Assembly (NCBI GenBank): GCA_038207085.1
Contig: JBBRAE010000043.1
Coordinates: 1-21,002 of the forward strand
Source of the DNA: Armatimonadota bacterium
GTDB taxonomy: Bacteria; Armatimonadota; UBA5829; DTLH01
Reading direction: 5' to 3'
DNA: 21,002 nt
Shown here: positions 1 through 15,155 of the stretch, piece after piece
Numbering within the stretch: position 1 is the stretch's first letter
Layout of the letters: the number at the start of each line of letters is the position of its first letter
Position numbers and translations under genes: made by a program
The notes under the pieces: model-generated
What the model was told of the DNA's origin: nothing
Database searches by the model: none
The model's input: the letters and a program-made list of their open reading frames with translations, nothing else

Positions 1-86
1 GACCACGAACCCCACGCTCAAAACGACGAAAAACCCCAGGGTTGATGTCCCCGCAGCATACAGCAAACGTGGTGATGGTTGGGAAT

Positions 87-106
87 AAGGGAACAGACAC
101 CTTTTT
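87..106 (-). repeat. REP-like ~20-bp repeat, copy R0 (variant)
   Basis: Reverse complement reads AAAAAGGTGTCTGTTCCCTT(ATTCCC), one substitution from the core of the copies at 3851, 7949, 10187 and 11723. Confidence 0.85.
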
Positions 107-560: not shown

Positions 561-3500
561 CTACACCTGTTCTTCTTTAAGCAGGCAGCACTTCTTATAC
601 TTCTTGCCGCTGCCGCACGGACACGGGTCGTTTCGGCCTACTTTGCCGTCGATTCTGCGAGGGGCCGACTGTGCAGGCCCACTGTGGCCACCGTCGCCGG
701 AGGTCGGGGCGTCGGGTGCGCTTTCCACCACGTTGTAGTAGCTCTTCCTGCGCACCGGCTCGGGCTTGGCGAGCTGCACGCGGTACATCCAGCGGATGAT
801 GTCATCCTGGATGCTCGCCTGCATCGCCATGAACATGTCATAGGCTTCTTTTTTGTAGGCGATAAGCGGGTCCTGCTGGGCGTAGCTTCGCAGGCCGATG
901 CCTTCGCGCAGGTAGTCCATAGCCTCCAGGTGGTCCATCCACTTGCTGTTGATGATCTGAAGCGCGATGTGCCGCTCAAGGTCGCGCATCACCTCCGGGG
1001 TGACATCCTGCTCCTTGTCCTGATAGGTGCGGTCGGCGACTGCGGTCAGGAAGTCGACAAGCTCGTGCCGCTTTTTGCCACGGACATCCTCGGGCTGAGC
1101 GTAGTGCTCGAGCGGGAATATCTCGTTCAGGAAGGTGTAGAGCGCGTCGTAATCCCACTCACTCGTCGGCATCTGCTCGTTGCAGAAGTTGGCCACAGCG
1201 CCATCGACCGTATCGTTCAAGTACTCGATGTTGGTCTGGCGCAGGTCGACGCCCTGCAGGATCTTCTTGCGCTGCCCATAGATCGTCTCGCGCTGCACGT
1301 TCATAACGTCGTCGTACTCAAGAACATGCTTTCTGATGCCGAAGTAGTAGCTCTCCACCTTCTTCTGCGCGCGCCCGATCATCTTCGACAAGAGCCCGGA
1401 GTCAAGCGCCTGCTCCTCCGGCCAGCCCCGAAGAAGCGGCGACTGGGTCTTGTCTCCAAAAAGTCTCCAAAGCTCGTCTTCAAGGCTCACGAAGAACTTG
1501 GCCGAGCCCGGGTCGCCCTGTCGTCCGGAGCGTCCCCGCAGCTGGTTGTCGATTCGCCTGCTTTCGTGGCGCTCGGTGCCGACGATGTGCAGTCCGCCGC
1601 GGTAGATCACCTCGCGGGCGTCGTCGCTCATCGCTTCCCACTTCTTCAGGTTCTGCTCGCGCCAGGTTTTGAAGTCCCAGTCGGTCTTGGAGGGGTCGAA
1701 GCCGCCTTTAGCCTGGTGAGAGGCCTCGGACTGGACCTCTTCGCTTCCACCGAGGATAATGTCGACGCCTCGTCCCGCCATGTTGGTAGCGATCGTGACC
1801 GCGCCTCTTCGCCCGGCGTCGGTGATGATCTGCGCTTCCATCTCGTGGAACTTGGCGTTCAAGACGCTGTGGACGATGCCCTCTGCAAGCGCCTCGGCAA
1901 GCTTGGGGTTGTCGCCCTCGTCGATGCCGAGCAGTTTCCCAAGCTCCGCCACGTTTTCGGGCAGGAGCATATTGGGGTTGACCTCAAGCGCCTTGGCGAC
2001 TCCGGCGAGCCTCGGAACGGTGAGGTCGTCAAACTTGCCGTTCAGGAGCGCACCGTACTGCGTGCGTTTTTCGTTGTCGATGCTTTTCGAACTGTCGAGC
2101 CTGTTTCTCAGGATGATCGTCGCCGCGAGAAGTTGCAGGCGCTCGGAGATCATCCGGTCGCTCACCCGCTCGGACACCTCGATGGAGCGCGTTCCCACAA
2201 GCACCGGCTGCTGTCGGGAGTAGCAGCGCAGAATCTCCTCGGCGATGCCCCTGAACTTCGCCTCTTCGTTTTTGTAGATCACGTCCGGGTAGTCTTTGCG
2301 AATCATCGGCCTGTTGGTCGGGATCTCGACTACGTCCAGCGCGTAGACCTTGCGGAACTCTTCTTCTTCGGTCTTGGCGGTTCCGGTCATACCGGCGAAC
2401 TTTTTGTAGAGTCTGAAGTAGTTCTGGTAGGTGATCGTCGCAAGCGTCTGGTTTTCCTGCTGGATCTGCACGCCCTCTTTGGCCTCGACTGCCTGGTGGA
2501 GCCCATCGCTCCATCGGCGGCCGAACATGAGTCGTCCGGTGAACTCATCGACGATCACGACCTGGCCATCTTTTACGACATAGTCGACGTCGCGCTTCCA
2601 GACCGCCCGGGCCTTGATCGCGGCGTTGGCGTGCTGCATCAGTTCTAGGTTTTCGGGGTCGGTGATGTTGCCGCATCCGAAAGCCTCTTCGATTTTCTGG
2701 ATGCCTTCTTCTGTAAGCATCGCCGTCTTGGCTTTTTCGTCGACGGTATAATCTGTCTCGTGGCGAAGGCGTGCGGCGACCTTGTCCATCTTGTAGTAGA
2801 GGTCGGTCGACTCATGCGCCTGGCCCGAGATAATGAGCGGGGTTCTTGCTTCGTCGATCAGGATGCTGTCGGCCTCGTCGACGATGGCGTAGTGCTGCCC
2901 GCGCTGCACGAGCTCGTCGTCACGGAACGCCATATTGTCGTAGAGGTAGTCGAACCCGAACTCGCTGTTCATCCCGTAGGTGATGTCGGTCTGGTAGGCG
3001 AGCCTGCGTCCGGCCTTGTTCGCCGGGTCGTAGGGGTTGTTCGCATCGCCCAGTGGCCGGAGGTGCTCCCACTCTTCGGGGTCATCGGGCTCGTAGGTCG
3101 GGTCGTAGATAAACGAGCCACGGCTGGAGCCGTTTTCGGCGCTCTGTCCCTGGATCGCCGAGACGGAAAGCCCAAGGAAGTGATAGATTGGGCCATACCA
3201 ACGGGCGTCTCGTTTGGCAAGGAAGTCATTTGTCGTGACGAGGTGCGCGCCCTTGCCTTCGAGCGCGTTCAAGTAGAGCGGAAGCGTCGCGGTGAGGGTT
3301 TTGCCTTCACCTGTTCTCATCTCGGAGATTCGTCCCTGGTGGAGGACCAACGCGCCGACCATCTGAGAGTCGAAGTGGCGCGCCTTGTTCTCGCCGAGCT
3401 TCCTGCAACCGGCTTCTCGAACGACGGCAAACGCTTCTACCAGCAGATCGTCAGGAGTTTCACCCGCCTCGACCCGCGCGCGAAACTCATCTGTCTTGGC

Positions 3501-3620
3501 GCGCAGTTCGGCGTCAGAAAGCGCCTTCGTCGCAGGTTCGAGCGCGTTGATCTGGTCGACGACCTTCCGGAACTTCTTTATCTCACGCTCATTGGCGTTA
3601 AAAATCGAAAACAGACCCAT
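561..3620 (-). CDS. secA: Preprotein translocase ATPase SecA
   Basis: Motifs MRTGEGKT (Walker A), IVDEADSILIDEARTPLIISG, GMTGTAKTE, TNMAGRGVDI, RRIDNQLRGRSGRQGDPG and C-terminal SEC-C CPCGSGKKYKKCC. GGAG RBS upstream. Confidence 0.99.
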   Translation of the reverse strand: MGLFSIFNANEREIKKFRKVVDQINALEPATKALSDAELRAKTDEFRARVEAGETPDDLLVEAFAVVREAGCRKLGENKARHFDSQMVGALVLHQGRISEMRTGEGKTLTATLPLYLNALEGKGAHLVTTNDFLAKRDARWYGPIYHFLGLSVSAIQGQSAENGSSRGSFIYDPTYEPDDPEEWEHLRPLGDANNPYDPANKAGRRLAYQTDITYGMNSEFGFDYLYDNMAFRDDELVQRGQHYAIVDEADSILIDEARTPLIISGQAHESTDLYYKMDKVAARLRHETDYTVDEKAKTAMLTEEGIQKIEEAFGCGNITDPENLELMQHANAAIKARAVWKRDVDYVVKDGQVVIVDEFTGRLMFGRRWSDGLHQAVEAKEGVQIQQENQTLATITYQNYFRLYKKFAGMTGTAKTEEEEFRKVYALDVVEIPTNRPMIRKDYPDVIYKNEEAKFRGIAEEILRCYSRQQPVLVGTRSIEVSERVSDRMISERLQLLAATIILRNRLDSSKSIDNEKRTQYGALLNGKFDDLTVPRLAGVAKALEVNPNMLLPENVAELGKLLGIDEGDNPKLAEALAEGIVHSVLNAKFHEMEAQIITDAGRRGAVTIATNMAGRGVDIILGGSEEVQSEASHQAKGGFDPSKTDWDFKTWREQNLKKWEAMSDDAREVIYRGGLHIVGTERHESRRIDNQLRGRSGRQGDPGSAKFFVSLEDELWRLFGDKTQSPLLRGWPEEQALDSGLLSKMIGRAQKKVESYYFGIRKHVLEYDDVMNVQRETIYGQRKKILQGVDLRQTNIEYLNDTVDGAVANFCNEQMPTSEWDYDALYTFLNEIFPLEHYAQPEDVRGKKRHELVDFLTAVADRTYQDKEQDVTPEVMRDLERHIALQIINSKWMDHLEAMDYLREGIGLRSYAQQDPLIAYKKEAYDMFMAMQASIQDDIIRWMYRVQLAKPEPVRRKSYYNVVESAPDAPTSGDGGHSGPAQSAPRRIDGKVGRNDPCPCGSGKKYKKCCLLKEEQV

Positions 3621-3748: not shown

Positions 3749-3777
3749 ATGTTATCACGAGAGGGGGAAAAGGTCAA
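3749..3777 (-). promoter_or_regulatory. Putative sigma70 promoter for secA
   Basis: Minus strand TTGACC-N17-TAACAT with a TG extended -10. A second TATACT lies at 3744-3749. Confidence 0.5.
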
Positions 3778-3871
3778 TCGTGTTGAGCGCGTTGCCTGTT
3801 GAGTGTGAACGAGTCGTCTGGAGATTCTTCGCATCTGTGGGTCGTTGTTCAAAAAGGTGTCTGTCCCCTTT
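3773..3871 (+). repeat. 99-bp direct repeat copy 1, ending in REP-like copy R1 (3851-3871)
   Basis: Ungapped match to 11644-11742 with 7 mismatches by manual alignment. Confidence 0.95.
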
Positions 3872-3932
3872 ATTTCTCTTTATCCCCCGACCTCTGATAT
3901 GATCGGATGTGTGTGCGAGACGAACTGCAATA

Positions 3933-3984
3933 GGTGGGTCAATATTCGACGCCGATGGTGGGTCAAGTTTCCACGCTATCGACA
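3933..3984 (-). mobile_element. Solo IS21-family-like terminal sequence (relic)
   Basis: Minus strand TGTCGATAGCGTGGAAACTTGACCCACC-ATCGGCGTCGAATATTGACCCACC: a TGT terminus plus two TTGACCCACC repeats 24 bp apart, the typical IS21 end layout. No istA/istB in the window. Confidence 0.7.
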
Positions 3985-4259
3985 CTCTTACCCTGTAGTT
4001 CCCCTTACATCAGGACAGTGGCAGCCGGTAGGTGTTCGCATCTGTAGTCATAGAGGCGGCAAGAACCAACACCGTGCAGAGTATACAAGCACTAGCTTGC
4101 TTGGCCCTGTTGAGCCGAAGGTCCTTCACACATTCACCACGGGTCCCTGACGAAAGAGAATGGGATGACACTGGCGGTCCACAAATCGCCCAACAACCTC
4201 AACTATATTCATAAAATAGATCCACATCCGGTAGTATTGCCAGTGCGATCATCATCGAC

Positions 4260-4288
4260 TTGACAAATAAAGTCACAGTAGTCATAAT
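4260..4288 (+). promoter_or_regulatory. sigma70 promoter of the large secreted-protein gene
   Basis: TTGACA (4260-4265)-N17-CATAAT (4283-4288). Confidence 0.75.
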
Positions 4289-4394
4289 GCAGGCGAGGGT
4301 TTATGGCTACCTGCCACAAAGTCTACCCCTCACCACGTGGCCCCAGGTCAGGCCATCTCGCCTACTGGGCACTGCGGAAGATGAAAGGGACGAA

Positions 4395-7300
4395 ATGAGG
4401 CGCAAACATCATCACATCCTGATGGCTTGTCTTCTGGCGGCCATCGCTACTACTGGTCCGACGCTGGCGAGTGTTGGAAGCAACCTGGCAAACACAGCTC
4501 TAAAGTGGCTACCTCCGGACGACCCAAACCGCGTGGGGCCTGGTCGGGTCACGCACTTCATGCTCGGAACTCATGGTGACATCAGAAAAGGGACCTGTAC
4601 GACAAGCACTGGTCGCGCCAAACTTGCTGTGTATCCTCTTTCTGGCTGTGACCTCCCCTTGGATGTCGACCACTACTATCTTTGCTGCTCGTATTGTGGC
4701 CCAGGCAGTCCTGGCAAGTCTTGCCTGGAGGTGGAGAGTGGGTGGAGCAGCAAGACCAGTGGGCACTTTGATTGTGTTGGTTTCTTGGATCAGGTTTTCA
4801 GGGATACTGGGTCTGGACTGTTGGATTCATATCTCGGACTCGAACATTGGGAGGTCACATCTCTGTTCAAGACATTGCACGATGATAGCTCACTCAAGAA
4901 GAAGTGGATGTGGCACCCAAATCCTGGATTGCAGGGATACACTGATTCAGATGCAGATGCTGCCAGGCAGATAACTATTGACAATGCTTACTGCGTTGAT
5001 CAGAATGGGCAGTGGACGAACAACGAGTGGTTCAAAGATCTCAGAAAAGGTAGCATTATCATCTTCCGTCCGCTCAACACTAATAGTTCGGCGTGTCGTG
5101 AGAGTCCGTGTTCTTCTTCGTGTAATGGACCGTGGTATTCCGATTGGACTAACTGGCAAGACGCGGAAAGTCATACCGCAATCTGTGTTCTAGGGTACGA
5201 AGAGTCCGGGGCGAATCCAGCTATGGTCAACTGTCGGGCCCCAAAATGTGGCACTCCATGTCCACCGTTTGGCTTGGTCGATGGATTCGATTCTGGGGTC
5301 AAGTATGATGTGTTGAAGCAGTTTCTGATAGATGGGCGTGCCTCACGTTGTGATACCAAGTGTGGCGTTAAAGGACGGAGCCTGTTCGGCTACTTTACTC
5401 TCAACGAGTGTACCTCCACCATCACAGTAACCAAAACAGCTGACTGCGGATCCTCCGTTGACGGCCTTGTGATCTACCTAAAGGACGCCAGTGGGAATGT
5501 CCTGCAGCAGGGAACGATCACCAGTGGCAAAGTCGTCTTCGGCAACATCCCGGCCCCAAACGGCTCAGCCGACTACTACGTGACCGATGCACCCAACGGA
5601 GAGTCTGTGATAGAGATAAATGGCCGCAGGCTAAAAACCGACACTCAGAAGGTCACCGTTACCGAAGGCGACTGCCGGGACTATCCTGTGACGCTGGCGA
5701 ATACCACTCTCTGGACTATCACCGTCAAGAAGTTCAGTGACCAGAACATGAATGGGGTAAGAGACGGGGACTCCGAGTCCTGGCTCGGCGGCTGGCCGAT
5801 CAAGCTCAGTGGCCCGACACCCAGAGATACGCAGATGACGGACGCAAACGGCGAGTGCAAGTTCACCGACTTGCTTCCCGGTGAGTACGCAGTCAGCGAA
5901 GAGAGCTCGGGAATCGTCTGGGAGAAGATAACCACAACCTGTGGCGGTACAACTTACTGCGACTGGCGCACCACTTGGTATGACAAGTCCGGCGACTCTC
6001 AGAAGACCCGGCGGTGGCAGTTCACCGGAGCAAGCACTGCAACCGGACAACTCTACAGCGCCGGAACATGCGGTGCGGGGACCGCACCAACGGTCTCGCC
6101 GGTCCTTATCAACTGCGCGCCGGTCACGCTGAACATCGGGAACGCGCCGCTTGCGACTGTGAAGGCGTTCAAGTTCCACGATCTCAACATGAACGGCGTC
6201 TATGATCCAGTCGGCGAGCCTGATGCCGACGGCGACTTGATCTGGAAGTCAGGTGAGCCGTTCACCGACCGGAACTGTAACGGCATCTGCGACTCGAACG
6301 AGTATTTCAACGATCTCAATCAGAACAAGAAGTGGGACGCACCGGAGACTTACACGGACCTCGACGGTGACAGCCACTACGACTGGACTGAGGGACCGAT
6401 TCACACTTGGCCATTTGCATTGTCGGGCTTCCGGGCCGATAACAGGCCCGTCTGCCACACAGCCCAGACTGGCGAATCAGGATGGGTCACGTTTTCCGAT
6501 GTTGCGCCGAGCAATCTGCCCGGCTATACGCTGAAAGAGGACTGTGATTGGTGCCCTGTGACCCTTGGCTGGACAGGCGATCCCCAGTGGCGGACCACTT
6601 ACCCCGTGCAAGGGGTGAAAAACGGCGGGGCAGCATGCAGTTCAATTGACCGCTGGCAGGCCACGACCGCATGGCAGAGGCAGTTCCTGCTTGCAGGCAG
6701 AGAGGACCGGTCCGAGAGCTTCGGCAACGTCTGTTTGACCACGCTCGACGTTACGAAACTGGTCTACAATGACGGCCTACCCGGGCAGGGGACACCGGTT
6801 CCGGGCACAGGCTGGGAAATGTGTCTTGCCGGCAAAGACCACTATAACCGGGACATCATCCCAAGCTATCCGGCGTGCAATCTGTTGGGGTTGGCTTCCA
6901 AATCGCCGATCGATCTTCCTTGCCAGAGCCCCAAATGGTACAAGAACCTCGTCGATGCCAACGGCAAGTGCTACTTTGTAGACCTTTTGCCGGGACACTA
7001 TCATCTGGCTGAGCAGCCGGATTCCAACTACAAGCTCAAGATCGACAAGGCTATGCTCTGCGGTTTCGATGTTATGTGCTGTCCATGGGAAGCAACACTG
7101 GAGAACTTCAGAAAGGACCTAACCTACACAGTCTACCAAGTCTACCCGGGTGATTCCCAGCAGGCTGATCAGCACTTCGGCGGCTACACTGGCAAGTCTG
7201 GTGACGCTATCACGGCGTCTCCTGGCGTGCTCCAGATAGTTCCGGGGCCGTCCTGGAGCAACTTCAAACAGGCTGACCAGCTCTGTCGGGAAAGCCCCCT

Positions 7301-7892
7301 GAAGAACGTCGTGCTTACTAAGCAGACCCCCAGCTTCATCCAGTGCTCGGAGGTATTTGCTCCGCATCGTGTGACGCAGCGGGGCACGTCAAACATCAGG
7401 CTCTGGTGGCCGCTGATGTATGAGGCCCCCGGCACTCTTTGGACGCTTAACATCCAGTACGGCACCGGCACAGCTGTCCTGTTCCCCGGCGAGACCAGTT
7501 CCGGCTTCTTCCACAACGATGTCTGGCGGTGGCGCATTGAGACTGATCTTGAGCACATCGGGCTGCTGATGGATCTGTTCCACGAGGTGCCGTTTGGTAC
7601 TGACGAGGTGCCGCTTATCTCCGATGAAGGCCTCTATGCAAGAGGCAAGCTCTTGTTGGCTGCGGCAGAGAGCCGATACAAAGCAAGCGACAATGCAGGG
7701 GCGGCAGAGGCACTCTCTGAGTTTGAGCTGATGGTATCTGACGCTTGCATCTCCTCCTCACCTATGCAGCCGCTACCTCGGGGCGCAGGCACCGGAGTTG
7801 CGCAGACTAGTGAGAACCCAGCCTGCTGCAAGCTCCTTATCGACATCGAGTATGTCGCCAAGAAGCTCGGAATATTCGTAAGCAACAAATAG
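4395..7892 (+). CDS. Large Cys-rich secreted protein: signal peptide, NlpC/P60-like domain, SdrD-B/SpaA-like repeats, Ca-binding loops, unknown C-terminal domain
   Basis: Start reassigned to ATG 4395 (GAAAGGGA RBS; MRRKHHHILMACLLAAIATTGPTLA signal peptide). FDCVGF...LRKGSIIIF...HTAIC resembles NlpC/P60 motifs. KKFSDQNMNGVRD...TDANGECKFTDLLPGEYAVSE and VDANGKCYFVDLLPGHYHLAE resemble SdrD-B/prealbumin-like domains. Confidence 0.85.
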   Translation: MRRKHHHILMACLLAAIATTGPTLASVGSNLANTALKWLPPDDPNRVGPGRVTHFMLGTHGDIRKGTCTTSTGRAKLAVYPLSGCDLPLDVDHYYLCCSYCGPGSPGKSCLEVESGWSSKTSGHFDCVGFLDQVFRDTGSGLLDSYLGLEHWEVTSLFKTLHDDSSLKKKWMWHPNPGLQGYTDSDADAARQITIDNAYCVDQNGQWTNNEWFKDLRKGSIIIFRPLNTNSSACRESPCSSSCNGPWYSDWTNWQDAESHTAICVLGYEESGANPAMVNCRAPKCGTPCPPFGLVDGFDSGVKYDVLKQFLIDGRASRCDTKCGVKGRSLFGYFTLNECTSTITVTKTADCGSSVDGLVIYLKDASGNVLQQGTITSGKVVFGNIPAPNGSADYYVTDAPNGESVIEINGRRLKTDTQKVTVTEGDCRDYPVTLANTTLWTITVKKFSDQNMNGVRDGDSESWLGGWPIKLSGPTPRDTQMTDANGECKFTDLLPGEYAVSEESSGIVWEKITTTCGGTTYCDWRTTWYDKSGDSQKTRRWQFTGASTATGQLYSAGTCGAGTAPTVSPVLINCAPVTLNIGNAPLATVKAFKFHDLNMNGVYDPVGEPDADGDLIWKSGEPFTDRNCNGICDSNEYFNDLNQNKKWDAPETYTDLDGDSHYDWTEGPIHTWPFALSGFRADNRPVCHTAQTGESGWVTFSDVAPSNLPGYTLKEDCDWCPVTLGWTGDPQWRTTYPVQGVKNGGAACSSIDRWQATTAWQRQFLLAGREDRSESFGNVCLTTLDVTKLVYNDGLPGQGTPVPGTGWEMCLAGKDHYNRDIIPSYPACNLLGLASKSPIDLPCQSPKWYKNLVDANGKCYFVDLLPGHYHLAEQPDSNYKLKIDKAMLCGFDVMCCPWEATLENFRKDLTYTVYQVYPGDSQQADQHFGGYTGKSGDAITASPGVLQIVPGPSWSNFKQADQLCRESPLKNVVLTKQTPSFIQCSEVFAPHRVTQRGTSNIRLWWPLMYEAPGTLWTLNIQYGTGTAVLFPGETSSGFFHNDVWRWRIETDLEHIGLLMDLFHEVPFGTDEVPLISDEGLYARGKLLLAAAESRYKASDNAGAAEALSEFELMVSDACISSSPMQPLPRGAGTGVAQTSENPACCKLLIDIEYVAKKLGIFVSNK

Positions 7893-7901
7893 GCATGGAA
7901 T

Positions 7902-7940
7902 GGCAGGAGGCGGTCGACTGATTGGCGGCTGTCTCCTGCC
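7902..7940 (+). terminator. GC-rich hairpin after the large gene (terminator-like)
   Basis: GGCAGGAGGCGGTCG / CGGCTGTCTCCTGCC stem with G-U pairs, about 10 nt after the stop. No clear U tract. Confidence 0.55.
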
Positions 7941-7948
7941 TATGGGAC

Positions 7949-7968
7949 AAAAGGTGTCTGTCCCCTTT
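7949..7968 (+). repeat. REP-like ~20-bp repeat, copy R2
   Basis: AAAAGGTGTCTGTCCCCTTT, followed by ATCCCCGGCAAG. Confidence 0.95.
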
Positions 7969-7971
7969 ATC

Positions 7972-8034
7972 CCCGGCAAGGTCGAGGTCGGGCTCAGGGG
8001 ATGGGAGATTGCCACTTTGAGGTGTGAGTTATAG
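7972..8034 (+). pseudogene. 3' stub of a gene, possibly a GH38 alpha-mannosidase-like C-terminus
   Basis: PGKVEVGLRGWEIATLRCEL* resembles the 'LxPFEIxTL' C-terminal strand of GH38 proteins. It begins at R2 and is followed by a + strand terminator. Confidence 0.45.
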
Positions 8035-8053
8035 ATAATCTATGAAGCATGTT

Positions 8054-8085
8054 GGTGCCGGAAATCCGTTTCGGCACCTCTTTTT
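8054..8085 (+). terminator. Rho-independent terminator
   Basis: GGTGCCGGAA / TTTCGGCACC stem followed by TCTTTTT. Confidence 0.8.
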
Positions 8086-8129
8086 CCCATAGTTCGTCCC
8101 TCAGCACGGATCCGTCTACGGATCGGCTG

Positions 8130-9647
8130 TCATGCGCCCGCGATCCTCGGCATCCACATCGGCTCCTTGCCCATCTCGGCGGATATCAACTTGATCAGGA
8201 GTTCGGACTTGAGTCCGGCACACTCTGGGCGGTTCCATAGATTCCTGACCTCGTAGGGATCCTCTACCAGGTCGAAAAGCTCGCCGTAGGCATGACCGAA
8301 GTATACTGTCAGCTTGTAACGCTCATCGACATAGGTCTTGCAGTGTACCGTCGTCGGCTCGTGGTGGTTCTCTACAATGATGTGGTCTCGCGCACTTGTT
8401 TTCTCACCTGCCCATACGCCGCTTTGGTCGACGCCGGTCATGGAGTTGGGCAAGTCAAGGCCGAGCATTCGTAAGAACGTCGGTGCAAGGTCTATAAGGC
8501 TTTGCATCGCGTCGCTCTTCTCCCCGGCGGGGACTGTTCCCGGGTAGCGCACAATGAGGGGGACTTTTATCATATCCTCATAGTGGAATGCTCCCTTGGC
8601 AGTCAGTCCGTGCTGGCCGAAGAAGTGCCCATGGTCGGTCGTAAAGACAACGATCGTGTTGTCGGTAAGCCCGAGTTCCTCGAGTCGATCAAGAATCTTG
8701 CCGATGTATTTGTCCATCAGGCTGACCATCCCATAGTAGGTCGCGATGTTCTTTGCAAGCTCGTATTTATCACATACGTGCGAATGGAACCCATGCACGC
8801 TCTTCCCCGTCTCCTTCCAGGGACTGAAATCCGGTTCTTCCTCTTGTGTGAGCGCGAAGTGCGGCGGGTTTTCATCGTGCTCTCTAGGGGTCAGCGATGG
8901 TACAGTGATCTTTTCCGGATCGTACATCGTGTCCCATGGCTCAGGAACAAGGTACTGAGGGTGCGGATCAAAGAAGCTCGCCCACAGGAAGAACGGCTCA
9001 TCGTTGGCCGCGTAATCTTCCATCAGAGCGTTGGTGCGCTCAGCGATCCACGTATCGTAGTGATACTCCTCCGGAATCATCCACTTATGCTTCTGGGTGT
9101 CGTTGTTGCCGGTAGGCGACTGGAAGTAGTCGCGCCAGTTGGCACAGCCCTTCTCCTCAAGCCAGATCGCGTAGTGTTGCCCGACGTGGGCCTCGGCTGT
9201 GTGGTTCCTGGCAAGCTCGACGTGCCGAAACCCGTAGAACGGCTCATCGAATGCTCGCCAAAAACCCAAGTCCTGCAGAACCGGATATGCCTCAAGCGAG
9301 GGATAATCCTCAGTCCCAACAAGTGGCTGAAAGTGCGCCTTGCCCACAAGTGCAGTCCGGTAACCTGCTGCGTGGAGGTCGTCTCCAATCGTGTGCGCTG
9401 ACTCCGGCAACTTCGTTCCAAGTGTCCACGCACCGTGCTGGCTTGGGTACTGGCCAGTGATAATCGACGCCCGCGTCGGGGTACAGGTAGGGTTGGGACA
9501 ATAAGCACGAGAGAACATCATCCCCTGCGAAGCAAGCCTGTCGAGGTTCGGCGTGCTCAGATCCGGGTTAATGCAGCCTATTGTGTTCCAGTGTTGCTGA
9601 TCGCTGGTGATTAGTAGAATGTTTGGTCTTGCACTACTCATGAGCAC
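8130..9647 (-). CDS. Cys-type (formylglycine-dependent) sulfatase, arylsulfatase A-like family
   Basis: RPNILLITSDQ, CTPTRASIITG (CxPxR), GKAH, DPHPQY, TTDHG and GELFDLVEDPYE. The start may be ATG 9641. Confidence 0.95.
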   Translation of the reverse strand: MLMSSARPNILLITSDQQHWNTIGCINPDLSTPNLDRLASQGMMFSRAYCPNPTCTPTRASIITGQYPSQHGAWTLGTKLPESAHTIGDDLHAAGYRTALVGKAHFQPLVGTEDYPSLEAYPVLQDLGFWRAFDEPFYGFRHVELARNHTAEAHVGQHYAIWLEEKGCANWRDYFQSPTGNNDTQKHKWMIPEEYHYDTWIAERTNALMEDYAANDEPFFLWASFFDPHPQYLVPEPWDTMYDPEKITVPSLTPREHDENPPHFALTQEEEPDFSPWKETGKSVHGFHSHVCDKYELAKNIATYYGMVSLMDKYIGKILDRLEELGLTDNTIVVFTTDHGHFFGQHGLTAKGAFHYEDMIKVPLIVRYPGTVPAGEKSDAMQSLIDLAPTFLRMLGLDLPNSMTGVDQSGVWAGEKTSARDHIIVENHHEPTTVHCKTYVDERYKLTVYFGHAYGELFDLVEDPYEVRNLWNRPECAGLKSELLIKLISAEMGKEPMWMPRIAGA

Positions 9648-9757
9648 TACTCTTTCTTTGCAACGGCACGTCGTCCCTGAAACCCTGAAGCAACCTCGTG
9701 CCGTATCCTTCGCTGAATGTTACTGTAGTAGTTGCCCCTTTTGTTAGCATGCACATT

Positions 9758-10048
9758 CTATTCAAGCTCCGCGATCCATGCTTCGAGCGTCCTCATGTTT
9801 CCGAGGGTGTCGTCCCACGTCATTGCGGGTGAATCGGGCTCCTTAGCGCCTTTCGCGATGGCTACGGCTACTGTGTCGGCCTCGATGGCGTAGAGTCCTC
9901 CGGCTTCCGGCACGCTGATCCGCTCGGGCTCTTCGATTCCCGCTTTGTGGACGATGATGTTCGCGCCGGTCTCGTCCTTGCCGCATAACCAGGGGTTCGG
10001 GACAAGTATCCAGCCTTCCGAACCATAAATTCGGACCACGTTCTCCTC
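9758..10048 (-). pseudogene. 3' fragment of a Gfo/Idh/MocA-family oxidoreductase
   Basis: ENVVRIYGSEGWILVPNPW...LYAIEADTVA...PAMTWDDTLGNMRTLEAW matches the C-terminal region of this family. The Rossmann fold is missing and homology ends at repeat R3. Confidence 0.75.
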
Positions 10049-10078
10049 GGGTAAATGGGGACAGACACCTTTTACGTG

Positions 10079-10147
10079 ACGGCGATTCCCGCTCTGGGTC
10101 ACGTGATATGGCACACCTTCAATGACTACACGTGCTGTTCTCGGCAT
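10079..10147 (-). pseudogene. 5' stub (23 codons) of a REP-associated tyrosine transposase (RAYT, Y1/IS200-like HUH)
   Basis: MPRTARVVIEGVPYHVTQSGNRR matches the MPRxxR...G..YHVxxRGNxR N-terminus of RAYT proteins. The HUH and Tyr motifs are lost. Confidence 0.85.
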
Positions 10148-10153
10148 GGACAG

Positions 10154-10183
10154 AGTATAGCAGAGCGGTCGAGGGAGTGTCAA
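10154..10183 (-). promoter_or_regulatory. sigma70 promoter for a probably leaderless RAYT transcript
   Basis: TTGACA-N18-TATACT with a TG extension. ATG 10147 follows the -10 after a 6-nt gap, with no RBS. Confidence 0.75.
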
Positions 10184-10297
10184 GATAAAAGGTGTCTGTC
10201 CCCTTTATTTCCCGGCAGGTGCTCTAAGTCAATTGCACGAGCGAGAATGTTGTCCATTATATGTGAGATGCGCCGCCCTGCGATTGTGTGGCACGCG

Positions 10298-11452
10298 TTA
10301 GGCCCGCCTTGCCGGAAGAAACGCGGATATCAGTGCAGTGTTTGCTGTGATACCGCTTTTTACGCGCCTTAGATATCCGTCCTGAACTAATTCCTTCACA
10401 TCTCTTGCGAGTGTGCGTTCGGTTACTTCGGTGTACTCCTTGGCGACCCGTCCTGTAATCATCGAAAGATTGCTCATCGGCACAGGGTCGGGCTTCGTGG
10501 AGAGATCAAGCACGAGATGTCGCTTACGAGCGTTGGCGTCCGAACCGACAAGCGTTTCATGGACGAAGTTGCGCCATGTGACTTCCATCTGCTGATGGCG
10601 GACCATGTCGAGCTGTTCCCGAAGTGAGTCCACAAATCCGCTCACTGCATACATCAAAAAGCCGACTACCCCATCCTGGTCGACGCTTGACCGGTCCAAC
10701 TGCCGGTAATACTCCGTTCGAGTCCGGTTGTAGTGATCGCTCAGGAGATGTGCGGCAGGAAGAGGGACCCCAGTAGCCGCAAGTATTTCAAACTCCACAA
10801 GTCGTGCGGTGCGCCCATTGCCGTCGCCAAATGGATGTATCCAGGCTATATAGAGATGCGTTGCGACGGCCTTGATAACTGCAAAAGCTATTTCCTGTCC
10901 CTCGGGCGGCTGGAACGATCCCGAGTTGTTCAACCAGTCGCACAGCCTCACCAGGAGATATTCACAGTCTTGGTGCGGCGCTCCGTGGTATCGCCCTACG
11001 CTTACGTCATAGTTGCGAATTATACCCGGCGTTATCCCTTCGTCCAACACAAGTCCGCGCAGAACTTGTCGGTTGAAATCAACCAATGTTTGCAGTTCAA
11101 TTATGGCGCTGTCGCCATTTACGGGCCTTCGGAATATGGCGTTGGCCGCTTCCACTATATTGTCGATTTCCTGACCCAGGTATTCCCTTGATGGTGGCAG
11201 AGGCAGATCTCCCTGCACTCGTCGGAGAGCTTCGCTTTCAGTAAGAGTATTGCCCTCAATCGCTGTGGTTGCGAGCGCTCCTTTGGCAAGGTATATATCA
11301 TTAAGTCTGGTTGCCACATCTGGACGTAGTGGAACGCCCGCGATATGCTCGATCTTGGATTGCGCTTCCCCAAGAAGCATCCACAGCGTGTATGGCACAT
11401 GCCGTAGATCAAGGGAGAAACTAATGTGAGGATGTGTCCTGGTTTATGTCAT
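10298..11452 (-). pseudogene. Fic-domain protein with C-terminal HTH; in-frame TAA at codon 3 (intact ORF 10298-11398 from GTG)
   Basis: Canonical HPFGDGNGRTAR motif, ATTAIEGN and a C-terminal TERTLARDVKEL HTH. The upstream frame reads M-T-*-TRTHPHISFSLDLRHVPYTLWMLLGE, with the stop at 11444-11446. Confidence 0.75.
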
Positions 11453-11643
11453 ACTATTTGTCATGTAAATAATCCAAATATTTGTTGGCCCTAACGTCGG
11501 ATGAGAAACCGGGTTGCGAGTGTCTTTCAGTGGTGTTATACCCAATACAGCTGCGACCAGTTGTCAATTATTGTCTATTATAGCAAGTCGTACGCTTACA
11601 ATACATGTCATGTATTATTGGCAGTCAATGGATCTTCCTTCAT

Positions 11644-11742
11644 GTCAATCGTGTTGATCACGTTGTCTGCTGAGTGTGAACGAGTCGTCTGGAGATTCTT
11701 CGCATCTGTGGGTCGTTGCCCGAAAAGGTGTCTGTCCCCTTT
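11644..11742 (+). repeat. 99-bp direct repeat copy 2, ending in REP-like copy R5 (11723-11742)
   Basis: Matches 3773-3871 (92/99 identical by manual alignment). Confidence 0.95.
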
Positions 11743-11967
11743 TCCTAGCGGGACCGATGGCATATCGTAGATCGGTTTGGAAAACGCAACAGTGGCCGCT
11801 GACGGCATAGTCGCGATACCTAAACTCTGCTGGCATGATCGATAGTCCGTATCGTGTCGCCAGCATATCTGTCCTGGCCTCAGTCCACGATGATCCATCA
11901 GTGGACGCATGTCGGTTGGAACGAATCAGGAAATCGGAGGGTTAAGGCCCGGCACAAAGTCGCGCCT

Positions 11968-12243
11968 CTAATAACTCCAGCCATTGTTCCGGGCTAACTC
12001 AAGGTTCTCAATCGGAGTTTGTTCGGGTTGCTTTCGTTTGTCGAACTCAGTCAGCAGCTCACACTGATAATCAGGACACTGGCCACAATGACTAATATAC
12101 CGTCCCATACAGCACTGAGCTATGGTGCATTGTGCCGCGGAGCATCGGTCCTGCTTGCCGCCCATGACTCGACATCCATCGCACGAGTGTTCAAGCATAG
12201 CGCCGCAAGTTCCACAATCCAGGCCGCAGTAAGCCATTTCCAT
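11968..12243 (-). CDS. DUF3795-like small Cys-rich (metal-binding) protein
   Basis: AYCGLDCGTC...CDGC...CTIAQCC...HCGQCPDYQC pattern. Start is ATG 12243 or TTG 12252. Confidence 0.85.
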   Translation of the reverse strand: MEMAYCGLDCGTCGAMLEHSCDGCRVMGGKQDRCSAAQCTIAQCCMGRYISHCGQCPDYQCELLTEFDKRKQPEQTPIENLELARNNGWSY

Positions 12244-12256
12244 CTTTTGCAATATA

Positions 12257-12832
12257 CTACACCTCACAGCATGAGACGCGTGCTTCGCCGTATTTGGAGA
12301 CATGGACGTCGGGATCGACTGAACCAAACAGCGTCAAATACGTGCGAGGCTCCCCGGGGGCAGGAACAATAGATAGTCCGATCTCAAAATAGAACCGCTC
12401 TGAGTCACTGTCAAGCCCAATCTGGTCCATCGGTATCAACGCTAAGACTTGATAGCCCTGATCGAGTCTGCTGATCGAATGCCGCACCATTGGTGCTGGA
12501 GCATACTCGCTGTGCCGAAAAGCTAGAACCTCGCTTCGATGAGCACCATCAAGGGGCAGAAAGGTCACCTGGTAGTTCTCGGTTTCACCAACAGGCAGAA
12601 AATACAAGTCCAGGCACGATCCCTCATAATGAACGTCACGGCGAATGATCTCACATTCGCCGATCGTCGCGAACACGGCAAGCTCATCGCCGGCAACAGC
12701 AAGACGCAACTGAGCAACAGTCGTGCCGCTCCATTCCACATGCAGGTCTGTCGAATCAACGAGATAATCGCCAATTCGTTCCACATGAGTGATGGATGTT
12801 AACCGGGGTATATCAAAATGTTTGTCTTGCAT
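12257..12832 (-). CDS. Hypothetical protein, CBM9/DOMON-like sugar-binding fold
   Basis: EGSCLDLYF...GYQVLALIPMDQIGL...FYFEIGLS resembles CBM9-like beta-sandwich motifs. Start taken at ATG 12832. Confidence 0.55.
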   Translation of the reverse strand: MQDKHFDIPRLTSITHVERIGDYLVDSTDLHVEWSGTTVAQLRLAVAGDELAVFATIGECEIIRRDVHYEGSCLDLYFLPVGETENYQVTFLPLDGAHRSEVLAFRHSEYAPAPMVRHSISRLDQGYQVLALIPMDQIGLDSDSERFYFEIGLSIVPAPGEPRTYLTLFGSVDPDVHVSKYGEARVSCCEV

Positions 12833-12933
12833 AGTGTTCCCTAACCCCAATAATTCGTAATGAGAGTAACCCGAGATTACCCATATAAATTTGGTAATCC
12901 CGTTTGCTATTGATTTCTCAGCTTAATGCTATT

Positions 12934-12962
12934 AGTATATGCAACCGTTGGGCAGATGTCAA
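12934..12962 (-). promoter_or_regulatory. sigma70 promoter for the CBM9-like/DUF3795 pair
   Basis: Minus strand TTGACA-N17-TATACT. Confidence 0.8.
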
Positions 12963-13090
12963 ATATTTTCGGACGGTTGAACCGCCAATTAACCTGTTCT
13001 TGGTGTGCAGCGCCCAGGACGTGTGCAGGAAAATGACACACGAGACGTTAATGCACGTTCCCTCTCATCTGGGCTTATGTTATTCCGGAT

Positions 13091-13107
13091 AAAAGGGGAC
13101 ACCTTTT
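13091..13107 (-). repeat. REP-like repeat copy R6 (4-nt internal deletion)
   Basis: AAAAGGGGACACCTTTT corresponds to AAAGGGGACAGACACCTTTT lacking one GACA unit. Confidence 0.75.
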
Positions 13108-13146
13108 ATGCACCCAATGATAACGGCCACTGTCGCCGTTCATTGG

Positions 13147-13174
13147 GCTTCGGGACGATGAGATGTCCCGAAGC
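13147..13174. terminator. Perfect 10-bp hairpin downstream of DUF167
   Basis: GCTTCGGGAC-N8-GTCCCGAAGC. No strong U tract. Confidence 0.55.
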
Positions 13175-13188
13175 ATATCAATGTGGCG

Positions 13189-13224
13189 CCCCTCACCCTA
13201 ACCCTCTCTCACAAGGGGAGAGGG
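13189..13224. repeat. CCCCTCACCC...GGAGAGGG-type extragenic palindromic repeat
   Basis: CCCCTCACCCTAACCCTCTCTCACAAGGGGAGAGGG, matching a widespread bacterial intergenic repeat motif. Confidence 0.7.
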
Positions 13225-13226
13225 AA

Positions 13227-13490
13227 CTAGAGCTCATCGATTCGTGCGCGTAGTTCTTCTTCGCTCAACCCATCAATCTCAAAGGTCTTGTCCCGGCTCT
13301 TTTCGCCTGAGACCAGGCTGACTTGGGAGCGCTTTACGCCGAGGGTTTTGGCGAGAAAGTCGACGCAGGCTTTGTTGGCTGCGCCTTCTACGGGGGGGGC
13401 GGTGAGTTTGACGGCGAGTGCGTCGCCTTTCCAGCCGATCACTTCTTCTGTTGAGCCGCGGGGGGTCACGCGGACCTTTAGGCGCACCAC
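13227..13490 (-). CDS. DUF167 / YggU family protein
   Basis: VRVTPRGS...LAVKLTAPPVEGAANKACVDFLAKTLGV...LVSGEKSRDK. GTG start just after the kinase stop. Confidence 0.92.
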   Translation of the reverse strand: MVRLKVRVTPRGSTEEVIGWKGDALAVKLTAPPVEGAANKACVDFLAKTLGVKRSQVSLVSGEKSRDKTFEIDGLSEEELRARIDEL

Positions 13491-13491
13491 C

Positions 13492-14421
13492 CTACAGCCG
13501 TTCGACCGCGACACCCGAAAGGAGCCGCAGGACGTCCTCGCGTTTGCCCATCTCAACACCTGAGCTCATCGCCGTGGCCGCGCCGGAGGCCGAACCCAGA
13601 GCAAGCGCGTCAGCAAGAGATTTCCCACCGACAAGCCCCGCGCAGATCCCAGCGACCATCGAGTCACCGGAGCCGACGGTGCTCAGTACCTCGACCCTTG
13701 GGGGGACGGCGTAGTAACACTCTGAAGCGCTCGCCGCGACCGCGCCTCGTTTGCCCATCGAGACTACCACAAGCTCGATACCGCGCGCGACCAATGCTCG
13801 GGCGGCCTCGGCGACGTCGCAGGGGGTTTTGAGCTCCATCCCCGTCAGGCGCTTGGCCTCCTCGATGTTCGGTTTGATCATACTCGGCCCGGCGGCTATG
13901 CCGTGGAGGAGCGACTGGTTGTCGGCGTCGAGCACAGCCTTCGAGCCCTCGGAGCGGATGATCTCGATCAGCTCGGCGTAGATCGTCGGCTCGACTCCCT
14001 GGGGGATGCTTCCGCCAAGGACCATCATCTTACTTTGTTTTGCCCAGGCGCGGACGCATGCTTTCAGTCGGGTGAGCTCGTCCGGGGTGATTGGGCCGCC
14101 GCGCTCGTTTAGCGTAGTCGGGGGTAGCCCGTCGCGGCACTCGATGTCGATGTTGGTGCGGGTTTCGGCTACGGTGCGGATGAAATCGGTGTGAATTCCC
14201 TCTTCGAAGAGCACATGCTCGATGAACCGGCCCGTCGTCCCGCCGACAAAGCCGAGCGCGACAGTCTCCGAGCCGAGCACCGCAAGCATACGCGAGGCGT
14301 TCACGCCTTTGCCGCCGGCATCAAGCTCGGTCCTGGTGATGCGGTTGGTGTCGCCGCAGACGAGACCGCCGACGTAAATGGTGCGGTCAAACGCAGGGTT
14401 GAGTGTAACTGTAGAGATCAT
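13492..14421 (-). CDS. pfkB: 1-phosphofructokinase-family hexose kinase (PfkB family)
   Basis: TVTLNPAFD, AGGKGVNAS, TRTNI, IKPNIEE and STVGSGDSMVAG. Confidence 0.95.
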   Translation of the reverse strand: MISTVTLNPAFDRTIYVGGLVCGDTNRITRTELDAGGKGVNASRMLAVLGSETVALGFVGGTTGRFIEHVLFEEGIHTDFIRTVAETRTNIDIECRDGLPPTTLNERGGPITPDELTRLKACVRAWAKQSKMMVLGGSIPQGVEPTIYAELIEIIRSEGSKAVLDADNQSLLHGIAAGPSMIKPNIEEAKRLTGMELKTPCDVAEAARALVARGIELVVVSMGKRGAVAASASECYYAVPPRVEVLSTVGSGDSMVAGICAGLVGGKSLADALALGSASGAATAMSSGVEMGKREDVLRLLSGVAVERL

Positions 14422-14443
14422 AGTGTGGACATTTCATAAGGAA

Positions 14444-14483
14444 GAGCGGAAAGACCCGGGACAACCCGCCGGTCCTTCCGCCC
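14444..14483 (-). terminator. GC-rich hairpin between hpf and pfkB
   Basis: Minus strand GGGCGGAAGGACC / GGTCTTTCCGCTC, followed by TTCCTT. Confidence 0.6.
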
Positions 14484-14505
14484 CATAAAACACAAAACAC
14501 AAATC

Positions 14506-14541
14506 AAAAACTAGCGACTAGCCACCACCGGCCAGCGACTA
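14506..14541 (-). terminator. Bulged hairpin plus U tract directly after the hpf stop
   Basis: Minus strand TAGTCGCTGGCC-GGTGGT-GGCTAGTCGCTA-GTTTTT. Confidence 0.5.
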
Positions 14542-14543
14542 AT

Positions 14544-15092
14544 TTAGGCTTCAGGCTCCATAAGGCCATAGTTGCCGTCTTTTCGTTTGTAGACGACTGC
14601 GACGTTGTCGCTGTCCTCATTTAGGAAGACGAAGAAGTCGTGGTGAAGAAGCTCCATCTGGTTGGCGGCCTCGTCTGGCCCCATCGGCTTGATGGCGAAG
14701 CGTTTGGTCCGTGTGATATACGGAAGCGGCTCTTCGTGGGCGTTTTCCGCTTCGGCCGCGATCTGCTCACGCTGCATCTCGCGTTCCTTGGGACCTTTGT
14801 CGATGGTCTTGCCGTAGAGTTTGCCTTTGAACCGCTGAACGCGGCGCTCGAGCTTCTCTACTACCAGATCGATGGACGCATACATGTCGTCCGAACGCTC
14901 TTCACCTCGCAAAAGCACTCCGTCGCCTTCAAGCATAACTTCGACGATGTGCCAGTTGCGCTGAACGCTTTGTGTGACTTGTGCCTCCTTGATTTCCTTG
15001 AAGTATTTCTCCAGTTTCTGGATCTTCTTCTCTGCGTAGCTCTTCAGGGCGTCTGTAACCTCGACGTTTTTGCCCTTCACTGTAACTAGCAT
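14544..15092 (-). CDS. hpf: Long-form ribosome hibernation promoting factor (HPF/RaiA)
   Basis: VKGKNVEVTDALKSYAEKK, DMYASIDLVVEKLERR and C-terminal KPMGPDEAANQMELLHHDFFVF...VVYKRKDGNYGLMEP. GAGGAG RBS before ATG 15092. Confidence 0.97.
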   Translation of the reverse strand: MLVTVKGKNVEVTDALKSYAEKKIQKLEKYFKEIKEAQVTQSVQRNWHIVEVMLEGDGVLLRGEERSDDMYASIDLVVEKLERRVQRFKGKLYGKTIDKGPKEREMQREQIAAEAENAHEEPLPYITRTKRFAIKPMGPDEAANQMELLHHDFFVFLNEDSDNVAVVYKRKDGNYGLMEPEA

Positions 15093-15155
15093 TGGCAGTG
15101 TACTCCTCTCAGTAGAAATCAACGGGCTTACCCGTCACCGCTTCGAAATCGAACA

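Follow-up and report, generated by a model that had tools for sequence, protein, structure and literature searches.

A short repeat that recurs between unrelated genes raises the question of whether it built the gene order around it or only settled in the gaps. Such a repeat, of 20 nt, is found in a 21,002-nt stretch of DNA from an Armatimonadota bacterium (assembly GCA_038207085.1, contig JBBRAE010000043.1), which is here called the window and is the entire contig C43 of an 83-contig genome (G000; 3.35 Mb, 57% G+C). An earlier sequence-only reading held the repeat to be a repetitive extragenic palindromic sequence (REP) by which a REP-associated tyrosine transposase (RAYT), acting in trans, had joined foreign fragments in tandem upstream of secA. 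The first part of this idea is borne out: the motif is, as judged from its sequence context, a REP tied to a RAYT. For the second part another origin is preferred, namely that a resident REP/RAYT element seeded the spacers around it before decaying and that the cluster in the window is what remains of it, to which a rough probability of 0.62 is given.

The repeat and its link to RAYT genes

The copies of the repeat in the window, and the pieces joined to them, are the following:
86..105, - strand: REP R0, 2 mismatches, 3′ of secA
3773..3851, + strand: tail D1, copy a, 79 nt on the AAAAGG side of R1, forming a 99-nt unit with it
3852..3871, + strand: REP R1, exact
7949..7968, + strand: REP R2, exact, lying where two complete genes converge
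9758..10053, - strand: 3′ fragment of an oxidoreductase gene, the last 98 codons of about 335, truncated at R3
10054..10073, - strand: REP R3, 1 mismatch, its AAAAGG side meeting RAYT codon 24/25
10074..10186, - strand: RAYT stub, with a sigma-70-like promoter (TTGACA-18-TATACT), ATG at 10147 and 24 codons, MPRTARVVIEGVPYHVTQSGNRRH
10187..10206, + strand: REP R4, exact, the upstream end of the RAYT cassette
11644..11722, + strand: tail D1, copy b, joined to R5
11723..11742, + strand: REP R5, exact
13091..13107, - strand: possible degenerate REP, 17 nt, 3 central bases missing, 120 nt downstream of the DUF167 gene

The motif, AAAAGGTGTCTGTCCCCTTT, was searched for in the window with up to 3 mismatches. 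Six copies with at most 2 mismatches were found, against 0 in each of 100 shuffles; the seventh copy counted by the sequence-only reading is only a 17-nt variant, and two of its positions, 87 and 10057, lie slightly off the measured 86 and 10054. All 4 copies on the + strand are exact and all 3 on the - strand are imperfect. On the - strand the 17-nt variant reads AAAAGGTGTC before and CCCTTTT after the missing bases and folds into an 8-bp hairpin without a mispair; the genome contains its core a single time, and its membership of the REP family is plausible. The 20-nt motif itself folds into a short, imperfect hairpin (AAAGG/CCTTT and a further G-C pair) with weak energies of -2 to -3.4 kcal/mol, and a perfectly palindromic variant, AAAAGGTGTCTGTCACCTTT, is present too. 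R2 and R4 also have in common a 14-nt extension on the CCCTTT side (family D2), with an extended match of 37 nt.

Over the whole genome, 17 copies with at most 2 mismatches were found, and the reversed pattern, used as a control, gave 0. Contig C43 is 0.63% of the genome and yet holds 6 of the 17 (binomial P = 7e-10); therefore the clustering of copies in the window is real. All 10 REP sites outside the window sit between open reading frames (ORFs), and one site of the genome is an inverted doublet, 15 nt apart (C28:834/869). That is to say, the repeat is short, palindromic and extragenic, as REPs are, though its copies are few by the standard of REPs. The aligned copies end in AAAAGG and CCCCTTT, and no GTAG or CGTC tag was found at the foot of their stem.

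The link to a RAYT is already present in the window. Positions 10054-10206 hold REP(-), the first 24 RAYT codons, the promoter and REP(+), that is, a RAYT cassette whose interior is deleted. The N-terminus of the stub recurs in full-length RAYTs of other genomes, and the whole 159-nt stub unit occurs twice in this genome, the second time at C41:20037-20195 (92% identical), where RAYT and REP are joined at the same point. The 24 codons include neither the HUH nor the Tyr region, so the stub is unscorable as a Y1 HUH enzyme.

In four genomes of the same order (G023, G018, G019 and G007), RAYTs of about 220 aa start with MPR.AR...PYH.TQRGN, and their cassettes have the layout AAAGGGGACGGAGCCCTTTT-TTGACA-N17-TATAxT-ATG...stop-AAAAGGGCTCCGTCCCCTT, in which the sister motifs are inverted. 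The exact 20-mer, inverted, flanks a full-length RAYT in an NPL-UPA2 record (L114/L115), and it stands on both sides of a RAYT of an Omnitrophota genome (G053; PF01797 E 8.8e-15) in the same orientation. The enzymes of these relatives match PF01797 at E 2e-15 and 8.8e-15, and their best NCBIfam model is REP_Tyr_transpos (NF047646), with 68 and 65 bits under a cut-off of 80 bits, the IS200 model scoring 29.5; no sequence match at E 0.01 or better was found in the PDB. The RAYTs of G053 (exact motif) and G023 (sister motif) are 44% identical, and their REPs differ at 3 of 20 positions. The repeat is identified as a RAYT-associated REP because of the degenerate cassette in the window, the full-length RAYTs flanked by the 20-mer or its sister motif elsewhere, and the inverted doublets. 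A full-length RAYT between copies of the same motif, for which the earlier reading proposed to look, was found in the NPL-UPA2 record and in G053 and not in this genome.

No intact cognate RAYT was found in the genome. A PF01797 search returned 4 matches, 2 of them above the cut-off and none beside the motif, all being weak or of another type, and a protein search with the G023 RAYT matched a single gene on C5, at 26% identity. This gene (C5:70500-72000, locus L001; PF01797 38 bits, 195-aa frame) is the only intact RAYT-like gene of the genome. It lies between 135-nt direct repeats that are 97% identical to each other and unlike the 20-mer, and parts of these repeats give 53 further BLAST matches on many contigs, often at contig ends; gene and repeats are probably a different repeat system of the genome's own.

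Truncated genes had been claimed at both R2 and R3. The claim stands for R3 on both sides, where the RAYT stub meets the oxidoreductase fragment (which we take to be of the Gfo/Idh/MocA type), and it fails for R2, where a 1210-aa protein aligns with its paralogues to the last residue and a sulfatase over residues 3-504 of 505. The oxidoreductase fragment is 69% identical to the end of a full-length paralogue on C5 (about 39.3-40.3 kb), and a 141-aa chimeric ORF runs from the RAYT N-terminus through R3 into the last 98 oxidoreductase codons. That the REP merely overwrites RAYT codons was considered and rejected, since the sequence beyond R3 is oxidoreductase and not RAYT. In G023 (L005 1020-2133) a RAYT cassette is partially duplicated in tandem, and the RAYT copy, cut at residue 130, joins the next complete cassette precisely at the outer edge of its REP.

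Small units headed by the repeat and their distribution

Family-specific tails always sit on the AAAAGG side of the REP. In full cassettes the partner on this side is the RAYT stop codon; elsewhere it is the RAYT stub (present twice), the 79-nt D1 (present twice, each time in the window, 5′ of secA and 5′ of the Fic gene), another tail with two copies (C72 and C7) or, with the sister motif, a tail of roughly 130 nt (four copies plus the first 62 nt of the contig). The two D1+REP units (3773-3871 and 11644-11742) are 93% identical over 99 nt and are the only two copies in the genome. D1 was found in none of 35 other genomes of the order, and a 38-nt core query had 0 matches in metagenome_contigs, by which a conserved secA leader was rejected. 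Rfam gave only 3 sub-threshold chance hits, none within D1, which speaks against a structured RNA or a gene end; no tRNA or tmRNA was found; the fold is no better than that of shuffles (z -0.16 and 0.42); and two copies are too few for the end of a many-copy insertion sequence (IS). Derivatives of IS200/IS605 that resemble miniature inverted-repeat transposable elements likewise keep one terminal hairpin. D1+REP can be read as a two-copy mini-element and need not mark the integration of 7.9 kb of DNA.

The repeat is also clustered in other genomes. G035 has 50 motif copies, mostly inverted doublets 14-27 nt apart, which is the arrangement of REP doublets forming hairpins (REPINs), and three clusters of 2-3 sites, mostly doublets in consecutive spacers, within 1-9 kb. 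No cognate RAYT was found in G035, whose assembly has a completeness score of 60%; its sulfatase homologue (L067, G035:C5:157860-162368) is spread over several frames, which suggests many assembly frameshift errors, and these may be the cause of the low completeness. G053 has 19 copies within 2 mismatches; three kb-scale clusters, one of them around its RAYT, account for 15 of these, and 17 copies are forward and 2 reverse. Therefore, clustering is a trait of the family. One or two accessory genes lie between successive same-strand REPs in the runs of G053, coding for RRM proteins, a YhaV toxin with a small ORF, a PEP-CTERM protein, ParE/Phd and Fic, with a methyltransferase gene nearby.

G053 and G071 are 85% identical, and an orthologous spacer of the two holds a REP unit of roughly 39 nt in opposite orientations (L199 1035-1073 and L212 2113-2149, respectively). 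Either the unit was flipped in place, or each lineage lost the other half of an ancestral doublet; the comparison shows what looks like a discrete REP unit turning over in place. As a separate observation, a REP lies just 3′ of ychF in two unrelated phyla, in G053 (L199/L200/L201) and in G000 (C5:116899 and C41:20040). In the same two genomes REPs also lie beside genes of EngB-like GTPases, RRM proteins, Fic and toxin-antitoxin systems, and a D12 methyltransferase gene is close to a REP cluster in each. These common neighbours could be due to chance or to a shared insertion preference.

Moreover, the 20-mer is not limited to this lineage. An exact-match scan of one genome per species (596 Gb), with one two-fold position (A or C at position 15), found it in at least 120 stretches, where about 2 are expected by chance. 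Among the matches listed (genome_contigs loci L079-L158, genomes G053-G057) there are roughly ten or more phylum labels; these matches include Omnitrophota, several Acidobacteriota groups, Planctomycetota, Hydrogenedentota, NPL-UPA2, Thermodesulfovibrionales and Armatimonadetes, as well as Gamma-, Alpha- and Deltaproteobacteria with the cultured Ectothiorhodospira. Five of the genomes with the 20-mer carry 2 to 58 copies with at most 2 mismatches. The Ectothiorhodospira cluster was rejected as a clean comparison, its region being full of multi-copy mobile DNA with only the first gene syntenic. A literature search by the letters of the motif found no description of this 20-mer in the collection covered, and the papers returned were unrelated primer lists.

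Origin of the cluster in the window

In the preferred explanation, a RAYT cassette would have lodged in an accessory, IS-scarred stretch, and the REP-headed units would be non-autonomous mini-elements, like REPINs or the palindrome-associated elements of IS200/IS605. The cognate RAYT, now lost or unassembled, would have moved these units as single strands, and the spread would have been preferentially over short distances or into accessory DNA that tolerates insertion. Afterwards the RAYT gene would have decayed by internal deletion to the 24-codon stub. Faulty cut-and-rejoin at a REP end would occasionally delete adjacent DNA, which may account for the RAYT stub, the oxidoreductase cut at R3 and the G023 fusion. 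The repeats would stand at the seams because the seams are intergenic spacers, most of which the repeats would not have made.

Several points weigh against this explanation. The local hopping of REPs supposed in it is not an established property, and 6 of 17 copies within 21 kb is extreme. Four direct copies with 20/20 identity would also be predicted by a Campbell-type or a cassette model, and the (gene-REP)n runs of G053, next to toxin-antitoxin, Fic and methyltransferase genes, resemble a cassette array. With no intact cognate RAYT in the genome, any spread must be old, or the gene must lie in an assembly gap. In addition, no more than 57 nt separate R1 from the cut edge of an IS21 remnant, and R3 lies between two truncated genes; therefore some seams are real breakpoints.

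The rivals concern the genes between the copies, which, with the other features of the window, are the following:
1..62, no strand assigned: repeat end, the last 62 nt of a repeat of roughly 150 nt that is elsewhere headed by the sister motif AAAGGGGACGGAGCCCTTTT
561..3620, - strand: secA, a core gene, with Pfam SecA domains
3929..3987, + strand: orphan IS21-family right end (terminal repeats), without an IstB gene
4260..7892, + strand: large predicted secreted protein, 1210 aa, likely start near 4395
8130..9647, - strand: sulfatase, complete, by Pfam
10298..11398, - strand: Fic/DOC family protein, Pfam PF02661
11968..12327, - strand: DUF3795 gene, by Pfam
12257..12850, - strand: 197-aa ORF without a family match
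13227..15122, - strand: DUF167-PfkB-HPF block, the right edge of the non-syntenic stretch

The segments between the copies are indeed unrelated by Pfam, as the earlier reading said, and the G+C of the accessory stretch is lower than that of its flanks. A CBM9-like label given to 12257-12850 is not confirmed, no Pfam or NCBIfam match being found for it. The orphan IS end placed about 60 bp from R1 is confirmed as IS21-family terminal repeats without IstB: positions 3929-3987 have matches of 85-93% in G003, G019, G027 and G034, mostly at or near contig ends, and in two of these, G003 and G019, an IstB C-terminus (PF01695, E 4e-19 and 1e-11) precedes the matching repeats; the window keeps the repeats only. 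The IS21 assignment, that is, terminal repeats after istB, is thus made via the loci of the relatives. The C-terminal roughly 250 aa of the 1210-aa protein are common to 5 paralogues. The closest DNA homologues of the sulfatase are in another family of the order (G035 and G019, 71-72% nucleotide identity), with no DNA match in 5 genomes of the same family, and the nearest Fic homologue found, in G007 (62% aa identity), has no REP nearby.

The window has other repeats too. The contig begins inside the repeat of roughly 150 nt, positions 1..62 being 97% identical to C72:2466-2527, with more copies on C21, C30 and C33. Multi-copy repeats at 135-491, 3′ of secA (80-93% identity to C31, C4, C6:1-229, C19, C54 and C76), are probably the reason that the contig ends here. 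Just 3′ of the DUF167 gene (13114-13228) there are two short multi-copy repeats, which match more than 12 contigs over 36-64 nt. An unrelated 81-nt repeat, 92-99% identical, is spread over more than 25 contigs; it lies at C72:2604-2684 and in more than 40 further places.

Among the rivals, it may be supposed that the REPs were passive substrates, and that host recombination at REP or D1+REP, or the integration of circular DNA, placed the 7.87-kb block 3872-11742. The block of secreted protein, sulfatase, stub and Fic is bracketed exactly by the 99-nt direct repeat, whose copies are 93% identical and share a 48-nt core without differences, the extended 37-nt match of R2 and R4 offers a further substrate, and REPs are reportedly found at the join points of tandem duplications in Salmonella. 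However, the D1 copies differ at 7 of 99 positions and are therefore not a fresh duplication; D1+REP is like other REP-headed families, which have 2-5 scattered copies, and two independent insertions fit as well; the block is without recombinase, plasmid or phage genes; and depth is flat, about 13x, over block and flanks. Such an origin is judged unlikely, at rather poor odds.

The capture array of the sequence-only reading, in which a RAYT in trans joins foreign single-stranded fragments at REPs and each REP is a recombination scar, is more doubtful still. It would explain why a REP or its variant stands in seven consecutive spacers between unrelated segments, why four exact copies are direct, and why R3 and the truncated RAYT of G023 are precise joins, the one between two truncated genes and the other with a REP edge. 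The direct runs of G053, with one or two accessory genes per interval (YhaV, ParE/Phd, Fic), fit it as well, and the E. coli RAYT is reported to cleave REP DNA and transfer its strands in vitro (PMC8266576). Nevertheless, this joining is not upheld here: there is no breakpoint signal at the other REP sites, the closest homologues of three of the genes are free of REPs, the orientation is mixed, and no intact cognate RAYT was found in the genome. The expected enrichment of truncations or breakpoints is absent, in a coarse test by Pfam coverage and ORFs of at least 90 aa: the 10 other sites of the genome are flanked by apparently intact genes, among them the pairs extracytoplasmic function (ECF) sigma factor/rhomboid, aldo-keto reductase/DUF5696, TacA-GNAT/YchF and GTPase/GH28. 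Of the 9 loci where the sulfatase, Fic and the 1210-aa protein have their closest homologues (several for the sulfatase, homologues of part of the 1210-aa protein and one for Fic), none has the motif or its sister with at most 4 mismatches within about 1.5 kb. Three of the seven copies are inverted, the orientation of the REP relative to the adjacent gene differs between the clusters of G053, and the genes that converge on R2 are both complete. No shared cassette is found, since the window Fic has only 27% identity to the Fic that lies beside a REP in G053. Integron-type features are also missing, in that there is no recombinase (no integrase or recombinase was found in a Pfam scan of the 18 window ORFs), the orientation is mixed, and no gene with its site recurs elsewhere.

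Gene order gives the array no support either. The earlier reading proposed to compare the secA-DUF167 interval among related genomes. In none of the 5 genomes of the same family do the two genes lie side by side, and there is therefore no conserved interval in which cassettes could build up. HPF and DUF167 are together in 5 of 5, with an intact PfkB between them in 3 and an absent or fragmentary one in 2. Orthologues of contig C49 of this genome lie 3′ of DUF167 in 2 of the 4 relatives that were compared. In the window secA lacks the downstream neighbours that it has in 3 of the 5, the contig ending there in the other two, and on the 3′ side of secA these three relatives have orthologues of C6:32.3 kb and C2:201 kb of this genome; neither of these two sites of displaced secA neighbours has a REP at its breakpoint. 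A DNA search for the gene order around the other REP sites, in the same 5 genomes, recovered one flank per locus only. Since the relatives belong to other genera and gene order is poorly conserved, the synteny comparison is weak either way.

A wider form of the capture idea may also be put forward, in which a RAYT with a near-invariant 20-nt REP crosses at least 10 phyla as an integrase-free cassette system that is cut at the AAAAGG edge; we consider this improbable. It is equally hard to credit that, by such a system, direct runs were built here upstream of secA and independently in the Omnitrophota genome. A low rate of gene acquisition mediated by REPs is thought unlikely to much the same degree.

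Assembly artefact, that is, chimeric joins at repeats of a metagenome-assembled genome, is very improbable. The window is one contig of 83, and in the likely source run the Logan contigs (k=31) stop within the 48-nt D1 core and within roughly 32 nt common to the C41 stub, so that phase across both is not independently verified. Against an artefact, R1, R2, R4 and R5 are each crossed by a single contig of the run that extends more than 31 nt to both sides, the 20-nt REP is shorter than the k-mers commonly used in assembly, and depth stays near 13x throughout. Moreover, a truncated gene would remain next to a REP even after a swap at the stub, and pieces of secA, the 1210-aa gene and Fic from a second sample of the same study are 100% identical (the PfkB piece has two differences). 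No excision or alternative join was seen in the Logan contigs, and no variant in the pieces of the second sample; a joint 107->10185 was rejected as an alternative join, having one side of 21 nt that is a REP match from elsewhere.

Relation to known systems and meaning

The presumed debris of a REP/RAYT element is nearest in kind to the REPtrons, or REPIN-RAYT systems, such as TnpA_REP/YafM with REPs and bacterial interspersed mosaic elements (BIMEs) in E. coli, and the REPINs of Pseudomonas fluorescens. Both have a short palindromic extragenic repeat, a Y1/HUH transposase-like gene bracketed by repeats (these are inverted in all of the 6 examined cassettes but that of G053, where they are direct), inverted doublets (C28 and G035) and a single RAYT per cassette, and the enzyme of the relatives ranks REP_Tyr_transpos first in NCBIfam (68 bits, cut-off 80). 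REPs are generally species-specific, whereas here an identical 20-mer is found in many phyla, in at least 120 stretches. The copies number 17 and not hundreds, and the RAYT of this genome is only a stub. The 20-mer begins with AAAAGG and has no GTAG or CGTC tag beside its stem, unlike known REPs, which are reported to carry one of these tags next to the stem (PMC3733652).

IS200/IS605 elements and their gene-less derivatives also have a Y1 HUH enzyme, as the RAYTs of the relatives probably are, and hairpin ends, short non-autonomous units with a terminal hairpin and a family-specific tail, and a strong strand bias within one genome, as in G053 (17 forward, 2 reverse). In contrast to them, the enzyme of the relatives scores 29.5 bits for IS200 against 68 for RAYT, there is no TnpB, the cassettes examined are single or partly duplicated rather than multi-copy, and no target-site rule was derived here. 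Integron arrays (attC, IntI) share the short imperfect palindrome between unrelated accessory genes and, in the G053 runs, toxin-antitoxin and similar small genes. They differ in that no integrase or attI is present here, the orientation is mixed, and the genes do not occur elsewhere with the same boundary; moreover, attC sites are about 55-140 nt long, against 20 nt for the repeat. The nearest precedent for the capture idea would be, by analogy and with a different class of enzyme, the one-ended rolling-circle capture of IS91/ISCR, in which a HUH Y2 enzyme with faulty end recognition mobilises adjacent DNA. The intact transposase gene of IS91/ISCR is normally next to the captured genes, whereas only a 24-codon stub is present here.

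The decayed REP/RAYT locus extends a known kind of element to a little-studied lineage, the Armatimonadota. RAYTs are described as inherited mainly in the vertical line on shorter timescales, while over very long times horizontal transfer may occur (PMC5581495). The same 20-mer is found under many phylum labels and flanks a full-length RAYT in at least two of them, which fits poorly with the vertical inheritance described for well-studied groups (PMC5581495). A true capture array would provide RAYTs with a biological role; the present evidence does not point that way. Finally, precise joins of a REP edge to truncated genes recur, in two genomes with the RAYT's own gene. Such joins are, as far as sequence can tell, natural footprints of the cut-and-join chemistry of the enzyme, and they could guide in vitro work.

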